Origin: Corallococcus exiguus
GTDB taxonomy: Bacteria; Myxococcota; Myxococcia; Myxococcales; Myxococcaceae
Reading direction: 5' to 3'
Assembly (NCBI RefSeq): GCF_009909105.1
Contig: NZ_JAAAPK010000002.1
Span: forward strand, 221,827 to 285,826
DNA: 64,000 nucleotides
In this document: piece after piece, positions 41,369 to 44,474 of the stretch
Layout: every line of letters starts with the position of its first letter
Position numbering within the stretch: position 1 is the first letter of the stretch
The notes under the pieces: generated by a model
Seen by the model: only the letters and a program-made list of their open reading frames with translations
Database searches by the model: none
Told to the model about the DNA's origin: nothing
Program-made: the position numbers and the translations under genes

Positions 41369-41755
41369 TCACTTCACCTGGGTCTTCGTCTGGGCGGTCA
41401 TGTTGATCTTGATCATGCCGCCATAGGCGCAGGTGCACGTGCACGTGTCGGTGAGCGCCGGCTTGCCCTTGATCACCACGGTGGGCGAGCCCGGCGTCCA
41501 CGGCGCGGGAATCACCGGCAGGCACGGCATGGGCGTGAGGACGCCCATCGCGGCGGCGGTGGCGGTGGCCACGGTGGGGTTCGCCATGGACTTGCACATG
41601 ACGAAGGGCGGCACGTTCATGCCCGGGACGTTGTCCATGATGGTGGCCGCCGGCGCGGTGGAGTTCACCTTGTTGGCGGGCAGCACCGACAGCGTCGAGG
41701 GCGCCATCCCGAAGCTGCACTGGAGCATGGCTCCGGACACGACCTGGATTCCCAT
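41369..41755 (-). CDS. PAAR-like DUF4280-family spike-tip protein
   Basis: Start at MGIQVVSGAMLQCSFGMAPSTLSVLPANKV (ATG 41755). ...PFVMC...PCLPVIPAPWTPGSPTVVIKGKPALTDTCTCTCAYGGMIKI... matches the DUF4280 (PAAR_like) pattern, including conserved Cys positions. Convergent with tssF (2-nt gap). Confidence 0.7.
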   Translation of the reverse strand: MGIQVVSGAMLQCSFGMAPSTLSVLPANKVNSTAPAATIMDNVPGMNVPPFVMCKSMANPTVATATAAAMGVLTPMPCLPVIPAPWTPGSPTVVIKGKPALTDTCTCTCAYGGMIKINMTAQTKTQVK

Positions 41756-43437
41756 CAGCGTGACTCCACCCGGGCGCGCAGTGACGTGAGCGCCTGGAAC
41801 AGGGGGTCTCCTGATTTCAGCTTCAGGGAGCCCATGAAGTACTGCGCACGGCACCACTCTTCATCCAACGGCCCGTCCTGCTGTCCGTTCAGGCGCCGCG
41901 CGTGGAGCGCGAAGCGCTCGATGCGGTCCGGCAGTGCGTCCGCGCCCAGGGCCTGTTCAATGCGGCGGCGCACGTCCGCCTCGCTGACCTCCACGCCGGG
42001 AGGCAGGTCGCCGGTGAAGACGACCAGCACGCTGCGATACGCGCCCGCCAGGCCGCTCTCCGGCACGGCCAGCCCCACCGTGTCCAGCCGGGGGCCGGGA
42101 GGCTCGCGCAGCGCGTTCGCGACCTCCTCGAAGAGGAACACCCGTCCCTCGCGCCGGGGCTCGCGCACGCCCAGGTGGTGGTACTGGCCGCGCACCCGCG
42201 TCAGGACGACGTGCGCGAGCGGCCGTCCGGCGTCCGGCAGGGGGGTGAAGAGCCCCGTGTCTCCCACGGCGTCCTGCCCGCTGTCGGTGAAGTCGCGCAG
42301 CGCCCAGGCGCGCCCGGGCGCGGGGGCGATGTCCGTGTGCACGTCCGCCGCCACGCGCCGGTGCGAGCACAGCACCGCGCCTCCCAACGCCGGGTCCACG
42401 CACACGTTGCCGCCGGGCACGCTGGCCAGCCCGCAGGCCTTGAGCGCGTCGCGCCAGGCGTAGAAGTCGAAGGGCGCCTGCGGATCCCTGAACCACAGGC
42501 CCACGTTCTTGAGCGGAAGGCGCGCGCGGGCCACCAGGTCGCGCACGGCGGGCGTGAGGCCCAGGGCCCGCACGGGGTGCTCGGTGAGCAGCGTGGGCGT
42601 GACGTCCAGGTCCGCGGGCTCCACGTGCAGGTACGTCGCGCCGCGCAGGAGCGTGGTGAAGTACAGCGCCGGCAGGTGCTGGAGCGGGTGGAAGCCCGGC
42701 GCCGCCAGGTGGTCCCCCGGGTTCAGTCCGAAGGTCAGCAGCCCGTCCACCAGCGCGCTCCGCCACGCGTCTCCGGCGGTGAGCGGCACGGGGACGTCGC
42801 TGGGTTTGGCCAGCGGAGAGAAGAGCAGGCCCACCGGCTCGGAGGGCTTGTACGTGTACGACGCGAGCGCGGGCGGCACCTGCGTCTGCATGGGCAGGAG
42901 CCGCGAGGCGTGCTTGCCCAGGAGCGGCGCCTGGTGAGGCTCGGCGGCGATGTGTTGGGGCGCGAGCGCGTCCAGCCGGCGCGCCACGAAGGCGCGGGCC
43001 CCGGGCGGCAGGAGGCTCACGCACGCGCCCAGGCCCAGCGCGGCGCACAGCGACACCATCAGCTCCGCGCCCGGCGGCAGCATCAGGCACAGCTTCGCGC
43101 CCGGCTTCACCCCCAACCCCGCCCAAGCGGTGGCCCGCCGCGAGGCCTGCTCCTGGAGCTGGCGGTAGCTCAGCGTGCGCCAGCCCTGCGTCCGGGAGTA
43201 CGCGCGCAGCGCGATGCGGTCCGTGGTGGCGTGGCGGGCCACCAGGTCGTGGAAGAAGTCGTGGTGCTGGCCGGTGCGGCTCTTGAAGGGCGTGCTCCGG
43301 CCGGCGTGAATGGGGGCCATCGCGGCGGCGAAGCCATCCGGATCCTCCCAGCTTCGCGCAAGCCACGCGGGCACGCTGTCCGGAGGCGGCTGGGTGCCGT
43401 CGAACGCGGCGAGGACGATGCGTGGCTCGAAGGTCAT
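41755..43437 (-). CDS. ANL (adenylate-forming, acyl-CoA synthetase/AMP-binding)-superfamily-like protein, divergent
   Basis: 560 aa. TLSYRQLQEQASRRATAWAGLGVKPGAKLCLMLPPGAELMVSLCAALGLGACVSLL resembles the AMP-binding N-terminal substrate region. The canonical (S/T)GTTGxPKG P-loop is degenerate (YTYKPSEPVGLLFSP). Immediately upstream of the PAAR-like gene in the same operon. Confidence 0.4.
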   Translation of the reverse strand: MTFEPRIVLAAFDGTQPPPDSVPAWLARSWEDPDGFAAAMAPIHAGRSTPFKSRTGQHHDFFHDLVARHATTDRIALRAYSRTQGWRTLSYRQLQEQASRRATAWAGLGVKPGAKLCLMLPPGAELMVSLCAALGLGACVSLLPPGARAFVARRLDALAPQHIAAEPHQAPLLGKHASRLLPMQTQVPPALASYTYKPSEPVGLLFSPLAKPSDVPVPLTAGDAWRSALVDGLLTFGLNPGDHLAAPGFHPLQHLPALYFTTLLRGATYLHVEPADLDVTPTLLTEHPVRALGLTPAVRDLVARARLPLKNVGLWFRDPQAPFDFYAWRDALKACGLASVPGGNVCVDPALGGAVLCSHRRVAADVHTDIAPAPGRAWALRDFTDSGQDAVGDTGLFTPLPDAGRPLAHVVLTRVRGQYHHLGVREPRREGRVFLFEEVANALREPPGPRLDTVGLAVPESGLAGAYRSVLVVFTGDLPPGVEVSEADVRRRIEQALGADALPDRIERFALHARRLNGQQDGPLDEEWCRAQYFMGSLKLKSGDPLFQALTSLRARVESR

Positions 43438-44474
43438 GGCGAGGGTGACGGCGCGGGTTCAGGGGGGAGCAGCTCGCGGGTGGGCACCGGCTCCACGCTC
43501 GAGTCCGGGACGTACTCCGGCTTCTTCTGGAACTCCTCCAGGCGCAGCTGGGGCACGGGCTCCGGGAGCACCTCCATCCGGGGAGGAGGCTCCTGGCGGA
43601 ACGACACGCCCAGGAGCACCCGTGCGATGGGCGTGCCCGGCGTGCGTCCCAGGCCAGGCCCCGCGAGCGCGTGCAGCTCCAGGCCCTCCGACAGGGGGAT
43701 GCGTCCGCCGGCCAGCACCTCCACCGCGGGCTGGTCCATGTCCGCCGCGAAGGCGGCCTTCACCGCCAGCTCGCCGCGCAGCCCCTGTCCGGCCGTCGTC
43801 AACCCGGCGCCCAGGCGGACCTCCAGCATCTGTCCGGAGGCGCTCGGCCCGGAGAGCGGGTTGCGCGAGCGCAGCAGCACGCCGGCCTCCAGCGCGGGCT
43901 TGAGGAACCCCACCTGCGTGCCAATGGCGGCCAGGGCTCGCACGCGGATGCCCGAGTCCCGGCCCAGCACCGCCGCGCTGCCAATGGGCAGCCCCACGCC
44001 CAGGTCCATGGAGAGGTCCACGGGGTGGTCGTCACGGCGCGACAAGAGCCCCAGGCGCGCCTGTATCTCCGGGGTGCCCAGGCCCTGCGAGGCCAGCGGC
44101 GTCAGGCCCAGGGGCGCTGGATCATCCCCCTGCTGCCACAACACCACGGGCACCTGCGCGCCCACCTCCAGCCACGGCAGCACGCCGTAGCTGCCCGCCA
44201 GGACGGAGGACGCGCGGTTGCGCACGGCCTCCAGGCGGCGCTCGCCGTTGAGGAGCACGAGCGGCAGCTGTTGGTACTGGCCCACCAGCCCCAGGCTCAT
44301 GCCGCCGGGCACCAGCAGTTCGCCGCTGCGCATCACCGCGGTTCCGCGGCCAGGGTTGATCTCCAGGTGCTCCAATTCAAAGCCGGGAAGGGCGGACTGG
44401 GCCCAGGCGGGCAGGGCGCTCAACAGGACCGCGGCGGCGGCGCCGTGCACTGACAGGAATTTGGGCATGGGCAT
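43434..44474 (-). CDS. secreted protein of unknown function (signal peptide), first gene of PAAR-like operon
   Basis: MPMPKFLSVHGAAAAVLLSALPAWAQS signal peptide; 346 aa, Gly/Leu-rich beta-type sequence, Pro-rich C-terminus. 4-nt overlap with downstream gene. Confidence 0.5.
   Translation of the reverse strand: MPMPKFLSVHGAAAAVLLSALPAWAQSALPGFELEHLEINPGRGTAVMRSGELLVPGGMSLGLVGQYQQLPLVLLNGERRLEAVRNRASSVLAGSYGVLPWLEVGAQVPVVLWQQGDDPAPLGLTPLASQGLGTPEIQARLGLLSRRDDHPVDLSMDLGVGLPIGSAAVLGRDSGIRVRALAAIGTQVGFLKPALEAGVLLRSRNPLSGPSASGQMLEVRLGAGLTTAGQGLRGELAVKAAFAADMDQPAVEVLAGGRIPLSEGLELHALAGPGLGRTPGTPIARVLLGVSFRQEPPPRMEVLPEPVPQLRLEEFQKKPEYVPDSSVEPVPTRELLPPEPAPSPSP

Follow-up and report, generated by a model that had tools for sequence, protein, structure and literature searches.

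Why does a protein that resembles an acyl-CoA synthetase lie directly upstream of a PAAR-like spike cap, at the edge of a type VI secretion system (T6SS) cluster? The question is raised by the window analysed here, a 64,000-nt stretch of a Corallococcus exiguus-like genome (contig NZ_JAAAPK010000002.1, positions 221,827 to 285,826). On its minus strand, positions 41369-44474 form a three-gene, translationally coupled operon (Table 1). In order, the genes encode a predicted 12-strand barrel (346 aa), an ANL-fold protein (560 aa), here called pseudo-ANL, and a DUF4280 PAAR-like protein (128 aa). When the junctions were read in the DNA, the stop of the barrel gene overlapped the ATG of the pseudo-ANL gene (ATGA), and the TGA of the latter overlapped the ATG of the DUF4280 gene (TGATG). 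The operon converges on tssF with a gap of 1 nt, the TGA of tssF occupying 41365-41367 and the DUF4280 stop 41369-41371. Both the operon structure and the convergence, as described in a first-pass annotation of this DNA, were therefore confirmed in all their elements. The same three genes are called in two NCBI assemblies, each encoding an identical ANL-like protein. PADLOC and PHROGs returned zero matches for the three operon proteins, so that a defence-system or phage reading of the operon has no support.

Table 1. Features of the T6SS cluster and of the adjoining operon in the window
Feature	Position	Strand	Basis or remark
IglE-type lipoprotein	24853-25365	-	PF22361 (IglE_N) 8e-31, 106.8 bits vs 26
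TssM	25362-29063	-	IcmF domains
127-aa ORF	29067-29450	-	
DotU	29378-30019	-	PF09850 9.5e-17
Possible short VgrG, 192 aa	30028-30606	-	NF041249 3e-4
TssK	30634-31887	-	PF05936; TIGR03353 318.7 bits vs cut-off 100
tssB, contractile sheath	32113-32757	+	PF05591 1.1e-41; TIGR03358 above cut-off
tssC, contractile sheath	32808-34325	+	PF05943 2.6e-110; TIGR03355 509.6 bits vs 271.5
IglI family (ImpA_N/TssA-like)	35708-36709	+	NF041244 4.9e-68, 230 bits vs cut-off 100
Probable TssG, 314 aa	36723-37667	+	tblastn to L050/L049 counterparts carrying PF06996
tssE (gp25-like)	37682-38068	+	PF04965 2.7e-7, gene call
543-aa T6SS protein, no family	38065-39696	+	in nearly all related clusters
tssF (baseplate)	39700-41367	+	PF05947 2.3e-21, TIGR03359 2.1e-23
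DUF4280 PAAR-like, operon gene 3	41369-41755	-	128 aa from MGIQ; PF14107
pseudo-ANL, operon gene 2	41755-43437	-	560 aa, 60.6 kDa; PF00501, profile-profile, fold
Barrel gene, operon gene 1	43434-44474	-	ORF and signal peptide; 346 aa

The fold and the lost motifs of the pseudo-ANL protein

The match of the pseudo-ANL protein to PF00501 (E 1.2e-12) is above the gathering score and covers only positions 8-82 of the 384-position profile. The remainder became apparent when profiles were aligned with each other and when the fold was modelled. The hhalign probability was 99.1 across 446 columns, and the AF2 model (pLDDT 92.4, pTM 0.91) matched Acs over its full length in Foldseek (E 7.8e-25), the best Acs-type matches having a TM of 0.69-0.73. 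The large N-terminal and the rotating C-terminal domain of the ANL fold are both present, and the nearest relatives within the superfamily are Acs-type acyl-CoA synthetases (PDB 2p2f, 1pg4, 5u2a). The protein is descended from such a synthetase and retains the whole two-domain fold, which bears out the relationship to adenylating enzymes proposed earlier.

The catalytic motifs have not been retained. In ANL enzymes, the A3 P-loop, [ST][ST]G[ST][ST]GxPKG, binds the phosphates of ATP. In a gap-free alignment, T264-G273 of Acs (TSGSTGKPKG) corresponds to SPLAKPSDVP, so a proline-rich loop of equal length stands where the P-loop stood. In these columns, the window protein together with 146 representatives has F-S-P-L-R-E-P-P-D-V-P as its most frequent residues; Gly leads in none of them, and no Lys is conserved. 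The A3 pattern was matched by none of 262 family members, and the degenerate P-loop that the first-pass annotation had noticed is thus a property of the family. The A5 Thr-Glu (T416/E417 of Acs) is replaced by Pro-Ala in the window protein and by Ala-Ala in the family consensus. At A7, D500 of Acs pairs with the Pro of an LLPD segment, where a shift by one residue to the adjoining Asp is possible, and the A10 Lys (K609 of Acs) pairs with Pro in a column that varies across the family (A 36, E 28, K 15 and R 14 of 147). Unlike in ANL enzymes, neither the Thr-Glu of A5 nor the Asp position of A7 nor the Lys of A10 is conserved, and the protein differs from these enzymes also by a conserved basic 7-residue insertion (PRREGR) at the A8 position and by a genomic setting of secretion rather than metabolism. 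Invariant polar residues specific to the family include D64, R68, H69, D231, Q253, R428 and E438. Since the P-loop, the A5 Thr-Glu and the catalytic A10 lysine are lost, adenylation by the pseudo-ANL protein is most likely absent, judging from the sequence; loss of canonical motifs is no proof against every kind of ligand binding.

The full protein matched only ANL families in NCBIfam, the best at 27.5 bits where that model requires 478 (the ANL models listed require from 317 to 4090 bits), and residues 1-58 and 181-560, searched at E<=10 for any IglF-type model, gave no match. Clustered at 50% identity, the family has no fewer than 387 representatives (E<=1e-30), and its named members appear in databases as 'long-chain fatty acid--CoA ligase' or 'AMP-binding protein'.

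The DUF4280 partner and the surrounding T6SS cluster

The identity of the third operon product, already proposed from the sequence, was upheld by PF14107, of which positions 1-109 were matched at E 9.5e-35 and 119.9 bits (cut-off 26.3). Its match to the NCBIfam IglG model NF041248 (2.6e-12) has 46.9 bits, where the cut-off is 200. The DUF4280 domain begins at residue 5, without an N-terminal extension, and in nearly all loci the protein starts with MG.QVV.G. All of 13 sequences taken from different loci have cysteines C13, C54, C78 and C109; the four conserved cysteines of DUF4280/PAAR-like proteins bind metal (PMC5014421). A sequence search of the PDB with this protein gave nothing useful. 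Going by the family literature and the T6SS context, it would be seated on the tip of the VgrG spike.

Next, we examined whether the two genes travel together. In 34 of the 37 related loci, the pseudo-ANL gene is followed immediately, on its own strand, by DUF4280, in most cases within an operon of T6SS structural genes; 30 of these 34 pairs are spaced by -10 to +48 nt. Where the flank was sufficient, nearly all related loci contained the same T6SS genes. Archangium lansingense has two clusters with one pair apiece. In one locus (L050), TssM-IglE-ANL-DUF4280-IglI-TssG-TssE follow each other on one strand, overlapping or nearly abutting, and here as in L051 the pseudo-ANL gene is embedded amid structural genes. 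An adjacent DUF4280 gene was missing at the ANL loci L001, L016 and L031, and likewise at L047; in a closely related cluster of M. hansupus (L049), neither gene was present inside 10 kb. With 38-42% identity to clusters of distant orders, the pseudo-ANL protein is better conserved than TssF (31-34%), TssK (30-36%) or the 543-aa baseplate-region protein (32-36%); the value for TssC is 46-51%. Finally, one protein of 778 aa (P0204) joins pseudo-ANL, a linker and DUF4280 in a single chain in the same syntenic slot. This fusion is present on two metagenome contigs of low coverage, and it might also have arisen by reading through a stop codon that was lost, because GC3 of the linker is lower (0.58) than that of the flanking coding parts (0.69). 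At the level of association, the pseudo-ANL protein accompanies the DUF4280 spike-tip protein as a fixed partner throughout one T6SS lineage, found mainly in Myxococcota. The link is hence stronger than the first-pass annotation had it, while the variable payload implied by its view that DUF4280 marks upstream 'effector cargo' did not hold: the gene is fixed, slowly evolving and often in the middle of a structural operon. No immunity-like gene was found beside it, and with DUF4280 starting within -10 to +48 nt there is no space for another ORF. The combination of variable toxin and adjacent immunity gene that defines polymorphic effectors is accordingly not seen, the protein being conserved across orders.

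The cluster itself is summarised in Table 1. Genes 24853-31887 on the minus strand make up its membrane-complex and spike side, which also includes an NF041245 match. The possible short VgrG, of a type that measures about 17 kDa in T6SSii, reaches 20.8 bits with NF041249 (cut-off 100) and matches DUF2345 weakly; TssB scores 148 bits against a cut-off of 97. The TssG candidate has no direct Pfam match. The 543-aa protein has no match in Pfam, NCBIfam, PDB or PHROGs, and its gene lies between tssE and tssF here and between tssE and the short VgrG gene in other loci. Some homologues of the IglI-family protein, the name used by NCBI, carry PF06812, and all 34 matches in the homologue search were myxobacterial. 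The cluster thus mixes Francisella-type families (IglE, IglI, IglG-like and possibly the short VgrG) with canonical sheath and baseplate genes. At L001, two genes with an eCIS_core domain were also observed.

The first operon gene had been taken for that of a 'secreted protein'. Its product indeed begins with a signal peptide (MPMPKFLSVHGAAAAVLLSALPAWA, with QS after the break), but is predicted to be an outer-membrane beta-barrel: the AF2 model (pLDDT 76.9) has 12 strands over residues 59-294, followed by a proline-rich C-terminal tail, and Foldseek returned the COG4313 channel 4rl8 (3.3e-8) and FapF (5o65) as best matches. A match to the TraB-like NF033763 is weak (1.3e-5, 23.4 bits against a cut-off of 700). 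Homologues of 450-500 aa have an OmpA domain (PF00691) that the window copy lacks, which makes it an OmpA-less copy of a myxobacterial barrel-OmpA family, relatives of which accompany a giant Ig-repeat surface protein in related clusters. The barrel gene precedes the ANL gene only in loci of Myxococcaceae and Archangiaceae. It is a lineage-specific add-on, and a conserved three-gene module, for which a search in other genomes had been suggested, was rejected on this ground.

Proposed role of the pseudo-ANL protein and alternatives

We consider it somewhat probable (about 0.55) that the pseudo-ANL protein is bound at the tip as a fixed partner of the PAAR-like cap, placed in the slot that IglF holds in Francisella. 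The association of the two genes would then have a physical basis: both proteins would be made together and bind each other, and the 61-kDa pseudo-ANL protein would be positioned on or under the spike cap, inside the baseplate. Efficient assembly of spike or baseplate may need it, and on firing it might be expelled together with the spike. In this picture, it would take the place of IglF beside IglG in gene order, and probably also in function, through a contact surface that should differ from that of IglF, because DUF4280 here has no N-terminal helix of the IglG type. Tentatively, and with clearly less confidence, it might even be an obligatory spike-tip subunit made from a dead metabolic enzyme and acting as IglF does, in an unclassified, mainly myxococcotal T6SS lineage that links parts of T6SSi and T6SSii.

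A true secreted effector, carried as payload of the PAAR-like tip and either binding lipid, CoA, nucleotide or protein or exerting a new activity in the target cell, is a possible but rather doubtful reading. The position directly upstream of a PAAR-like gene and the family-specific invariant polar residues agree with it, and in the P0204 fusion the pseudo-ANL part is an N-terminal extension of DUF4280, as in 'specialised' PAAR effectors (PMC5014421). Nevertheless, the protein is single-copy and slow-evolving across the clusters of the lineage, unlike polymorphic T6SS toxins; it has no known catalytic residue, no small immunity-like neighbour (DUF4280 starts within 48 nt) and, in L050 and L051, a place among structural genes. 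Adaptors with DUF4123, DUF1795 or DUF2169 serve other T6SS tips, and a cytoplasmic chaperone or adaptor that stabilises and loads the cysteine-rich cap and is retained in the producer would agree with translational coupling directly upstream of the tip gene, lineage-wide conservation and the loss of catalysis, which fits scaffolding. It seems unlikely nonetheless: the fusion would export the ANL domain together with the tip, 61 kDa is far above the known adaptors, and no Pfam adaptor family is matched.

Two further readings carry very little weight. A cluster resembling an extracellular contractile injection system (eCIS; 47811-63146+) begins 3.3 kb from the operon, and DUF4280/PAAR-like proteins are able to cap eCIS spikes (PMC8651086), so the operon might belong to this cluster and not to the T6SS. 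This is highly improbable, as the pair lies inside T6SS operons in other genera and a gene-by-gene examination found no eCIS structural genes within 10 kb at L002, L003, L046, L050 and L051. The first gene of the eCIS-like cluster (47811-49769) is moreover restricted to Corallococcus-type loci (phmmer, 38 loci), and genes for a PAS histidine kinase and a DUF1622 protein separate it from the operon. The other reading, an ordinary acyl-CoA ligase that is adjacent to the T6SS by coincidence, has in its favour the database names and the above-gathering PF00501 match. It is refuted by motif loss and synteny, namely the family-wide disappearance of the P-loop, A5 and A10 residues and the DUF4280/T6SS neighbourhood in 34 of 37 loci; the Pfam match spans 75 of 384 profile positions and the best NCBIfam score is far below cut-off. 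An intact motif set and a metabolic orthologue, which the first-pass annotation had regarded as signs of an ordinary ligase, were looked for and neither was found.

The pseudo-ANL protein is not the metabolic ligase that the databases make of it, but most likely a new component or passenger of the secretion machine. Named members of its family are nonetheless called ligase or AMP-binding protein, and metabolic reconstructions of myxobacteria would inherit this error. It provides a clean example of a pseudoenzyme under strong purifying selection, and recruitment of a dead metabolic enzyme as spike-tip partner would bring an unexpected fold to the T6SS. A direct test is thereby set up for the role of large conserved partners of PAAR-like caps. 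As for the Francisella-type parts outside Francisella, free-living relatives may aid the study of the unexplained FPI proteins IglF and IglI.

Comparison with known systems

Large proteins genetically tied to the tip are also known from PAAR or PAAR-like proteins with extensions or partner effectors (Tse6, TseT, DUF4280-toxin), and like these, the pseudo-ANL protein is fused to the tip protein, here in one lineage. It differs from them in being invariant within its lineage and in having no recognisable toxin domain or immunity gene. The tip adaptors (DUF4123/Tap, DUF1795/Eag and DUF2169) are likewise conserved, presumably non-catalytic and encoded beside the tip gene. Their fold is unrelated, however, they are much smaller, and they bridge to a separate effector gene, none of which is evident near pseudo-ANL. 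As for the barrel, TraB of Myxococcus outer-membrane exchange, COG4313 and FapF are 12-strand outer-membrane barrels of the same fold class; TraB and the full-length relatives have a C-terminal OmpA domain, where the window copy has its proline-rich tail.

Recent literature still calls the Francisella-type system exclusive to Francisella (PMC12955703), and our literature search for an ANL/AMP-binding protein in a T6SS, or for a Francisella-like T6SS in myxobacteria, returned nothing relevant. The Francisella island (T6SSii) and the myxobacterial cluster have IglE- and IglI-family genes in common. On the other hand, a sheath and baseplate divergent from canonical T6SSi, a trait of T6SSii, were not found in the window, where sheath, TssK, TssE, TssF and TssG match canonical T6SS models, and the host is a soil myxobacterium and not an intracellular pathogen. 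The N-terminal alpha-helical extension of IglG is the element that binds IglF. This helix is not present in the DUF4280 protein of the window, and the analogy to IglF is for this reason one of gene position only, in which sense the pseudo-ANL gene may be said to hold the slot of iglF beside an IglG-like gene. The iglF gene of Francisella directly precedes iglG, and the two products bind each other (PMC5014421); the sheath is assembled efficiently only when both genes are present (PMC5481754). IglF (67.9 kDa; PMC5924787) and the pseudo-ANL protein are thus alike in their size of about 60-68 kDa, in their unassigned function and in the position of their genes, each followed directly by one for a DUF4280 PAAR-like protein.

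Architecture of the operon and its neighbourhood

The G+C content is 65-75% across the window, its proteins share 84-98% identity with those of Corallococcus, and two NCBI assemblies encode an identical ANL-like protein with the same gene calls. On the minus strand, three ORFs with high third-position G+C extend from 44474 to 41369, encoding a signal-peptide protein, the ANL-like protein and a PAAR-like DUF4280 protein. As read in the DNA, the stop codon of the first gene overlaps the start of the second in ATGA, the stop of the second overlaps the start of the third in TGATG, and the stop codons of the DUF4280 gene and tssF are 1 nt apart. 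The ORFs, Pfam matches and junctions thus agree in every detail with the first-pass annotation, which had proposed a three-gene operon convergent on tssF, the DUF4280 identity of the last product and an AMP-binding relationship of the middle one. Upstream, beyond a spacer of 165 nt, lies a PAS histidine kinase gene on the same strand. The kinase, up to 828 aa long from the first possible start and called as 773 aa in the matching assemblies, could regulate the ANL-DUF4280 operon.

Features of the window and of related loci (L numbers; positions within each locus)
Feature	Position	Strand	Remarks
Ig-repeat giant (HYDIN/ASH/Cep192-type), 1949 aa	18994-24843	-	other end of T6SS cluster
IglE-type lipoprotein	within 24853-41367		PF22361, 8e-31
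TssM, DotU	within 24853-41367
TssK, TssB, TssC	within 24853-41367
IglI-family/ImpA_N protein	within 24853-41367		NF041244, 230 bits (cut-off 100)
Probable TssG, TssE	within 24853-41367
Hcp-size protein, 215 aa	34358-35005	+	between tssC and IglI-family gene, facing the next
Hcp-size protein, 199 aa	35068-35667	-	paralogue of the preceding
Conserved 543-aa protein	38065-39696	+	between tssE and short VgrG or tssF in nearly all clusters of the lineage
TssF	39700-41367	+	Pfam 2.3e-21; convergent on operon
DUF4280 protein, 128 aa	41369-41755	-	Pfam DUF4280 9.5e-35, full-length
ANL-like protein, 560 aa	41755-43437	-	Pfam AMP-binding, profile positions 8-82 of 384 only
Sec-type signal-peptide protein, 346 aa	43434-44474	-
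PAS-PAS-PAS histidine kinase and DUF1622 membrane protein	44640-47636	-	between T6SS operon and eCIS cluster
eCIS or phage-tail-like cluster	47811-63146	+	separate, 3.3 kb from operon
First eCIS-cluster gene	47811-49769	+
eCIS sheath, 804 aa	49693-52107	+
eCIS gp19 tube	52695-53186	+
eCIS CIS_tube protein	54147-55019	+
eCIS GPD hub	55221-56495	+
eCIS Baseplate_J protein, 1416 aa	56383-60633	+
Ig-repeat giant, L003	17338-21791
Ig-repeat giant, L014	3928-9993
Pseudo-ANL/DUF4280 fusion P0204, L051	8761-11097		preceded by DotU/146-aa genes, followed downstream by two genes of 337 and 307 aa in IglI/TssG position

The host T6SS cluster spans 24853-41367. Because its sheath proteins and TssK score above the TIGRFAM cut-offs for canonical T6SS, the system lies outside the Francisella type, yet it has in common with it several families defined on Francisella proteins. 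The Francisella-type system (T6SSii) is still described as exclusive to Francisella (PMC12955703). Literature searches retrieved no paper on such a myxobacterial T6SS or on an ANL-like T6SS protein; the NCBI naming of myxobacterial IglI-family proteins is already in place, so that these are known to curators. A 192-aa product is a possible short VgrG (NF041249, 3e-4). The two Hcp-size paralogues, which have no family match, match one another across related loci and presumably represent diverged tube proteins. The 543-aa protein, without any match in Pfam, NCBIfam, PDB or PHROGs, is a candidate hub of gp27 or PdpA-like type.

The adjacent eCIS was rejected as the owner of the operon: in those related loci of other genera that were examined gene by gene, no structural gene of an eCIS occurred within 10 kb. 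In a phmmer scan of 38 loci, the first gene of the eCIS cluster was confined to Corallococcus-type loci. One locus (L001) contains two genes with an eCIS_core domain.

The ANL-like protein family

The middle protein has the full ANL fold without the motifs of ANL chemistry. When it was aligned with the acyl-CoA synthetase reference Acs, the P-loop TSGSTGKPKG stood ungapped opposite SPLAKPSDVP, and the strand-loop-strand around this position was retained in the predicted ANL-like structure. Acs T416/E417 are replaced by Pro/Ala (Ala/Ala in the family consensus), and the catalytic K609 by Pro, in a column that is freely variable family-wide. D500 also corresponds to Pro, with an Asp next door that makes this position uncertain. 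At the A8 position there is a conserved basic insertion, PRREGR.

These losses are shared by a large pseudoenzyme family, for which an exhaustive profile search at E<=1e-30 returned 387 cluster representatives (50% identity). The window protein and 146 of the 150 best-scoring representatives were aligned to the family profile. In this set, the commonest residues of the P-loop columns are F-S-P-L-R-E-P-P-D-V-P, Gly being nowhere the most frequent and no Lys being conserved; A5 reads A-A, and 15 of 147 sequences have Lys at A10. The A3 pattern was matched by none of 262 family members. Where source names are given, members are called 'AMP-binding protein' or 'long-chain fatty acid--CoA ligase'. 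Two representatives carry C-terminal tails of about 180-250 aa made of proline-rich repeats, of PPPEGEA type in P0170 and APPSD type in P0227, similar to the proline-rich tail of the signal-peptide protein in the window.

Linkage with DUF4280 and with a single kind of T6SS

The proposed link between the ANL-like protein and PAAR was upheld. Of 37 loci encoding a relative, 34 have a DUF4280 gene immediately following it on the same strand, and the gap ranges from -10 to +48 nt in 30 of these 34 pairs. Nearly every locus with enough flank contains the same T6SS genes. Shared gene blocks were found in loci of Archangium, Hyalangium, Pyxidicoccus, Myxococcus, Haliangium, Enhygromyxa, Kofleriaceae and Polyangia, where the order ANL-DUF4280-IglI family-TssG is constant, and a TssB-TssC-(Hcp-size)-TssK-TssE-543 aa-short VgrG-TssF-DotU block follows on the same strand or is located upstream in divergent orientation. 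Two distant loci came from the exhaustive search only: one (L046) encodes a ClpB-like protein, ANL and DUF4280, then TssB to TssG and IglI, and the other (L050) has TssM-IglE-ANL-DUF4280-IglI-TssG-TssE on a single strand, with genes near-abutting or overlapping. Archangium lansingense (NZ_JAPNKA010000001.1) has two complete clusters of differing gene order (L013, L020), each with its own pseudo-ANL/DUF4280 pair. The pseudo-ANL is thus shown to be genetically linked, lineage-wide, to the PAAR-like tip gene and this T6SS, and to be translationally coupled to the tip gene.

As for the exceptions, no DUF4280 occurs within 10 kb in L001 and L016, it lies 4.4 kb away on the opposite strand in L031, and L047 is without it, a gene resembling that of the 543-aa protein being the sole T6SS gene nearby. 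The cluster closest to that of the window, from Myxococcus hansupus (L049, CP012109.1 2900961-2921920), has the same layout; its tssF is split into two ORFs and no ANL-DUF4280 pair is present within 10 kb, and it may be decaying or rearranged. In the 778-aa protein P0204, recorded on two contigs, pseudo-ANL and DUF4280 are fused through a low-complexity linker of about 100 aa, in the usual slot of the pair. The linker has a lower GC3 than the domains on either side of it, and the contigs have low coverage, so that the fusion is provisional, with a lesser probability that it reflects read-through of a lost stop codon.

A conserved module of all three genes was rejected, the placement of the first gene being lineage-specific. 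Its product combines a signal peptide with 12 predicted strands at residues 59-294 and a proline-rich tail that is disordered; in structure it best matches the 12-strand COG4313 channel and FapF, and the likeness to TraB is far under the cut-off. Homologues are mostly 450-500 aa long and have an OmpA domain at the C-terminus that is missing from the window copy. This barrel gene precedes ANL in Myxococcaceae/Archangiaceae loci only. In other loci it is divergent from the giant Ig-repeat gene, which itself precedes ANL (directly upstream in Archangium, Hyalangium and Haliangium loci). The barrel therefore counts as a lineage-specific accessory, and conservation as a unit is confined to the ANL-DUF4280 pair. 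The giant, whose L003 copy has Phenol_MetA_deg and OmpA domains at its end, is a possible surface adhesin that is conserved together with this T6SS.

Possible role at the T6SS tip and known systems

We consider the middle protein a non-catalytic, DUF4280-associated T6SS component (probability about 0.85). Its more specific role is a matter of roughly even odds: a tip-bound protein relevant to assembly, which would form a complex with DUF4280, be carried on the spike tip within the baseplate, aid assembly and be expelled on firing. The window protein is 38-42% identical to its counterparts in clusters of other orders, compared with 31-34% for TssF, 32-36% for the 543-aa protein, 30-36% for TssK, 46-51% for TssC and 48-59% for DUF4280. 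The pseudo-ANL is thus shown to evolve slowly, like a core part rather than a payload. There is also no space for an immunity gene between the ANL and DUF4280 genes. Both observations argue for a shape constrained by partners and against a polymorphic toxin. A true effector is less likely; a chaperone that is not itself secreted seems more improbable still. Of the earlier reading, the link to PAAR and the repurposing of the fold stand, while its framing of the protein as variable cargo does not.

We regard the pseudo-ANL as a probable T6SS tip partner derived from an ANL enzyme that is now dead. The T6SS lineage to which it belongs combines canonical parts with parts of Francisella type. In Francisella, iglF lies directly upstream of iglG, a gene of DUF4280 type, IglF binds IglG, and efficient sheath assembly needs both (PMC5014421, PMC5481754). 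The pseudo-ANL measures 60.6 kDa, against 67.9 kDa for IglF (PMC5924787). The window DUF4280 protein differs from IglG in being without the N-terminal helix, the part by which IglG holds IglF. The iglF-iglG pair is the closest precedent for the ANL-DUF4280 pair, through a likeness that is one of gene position only.
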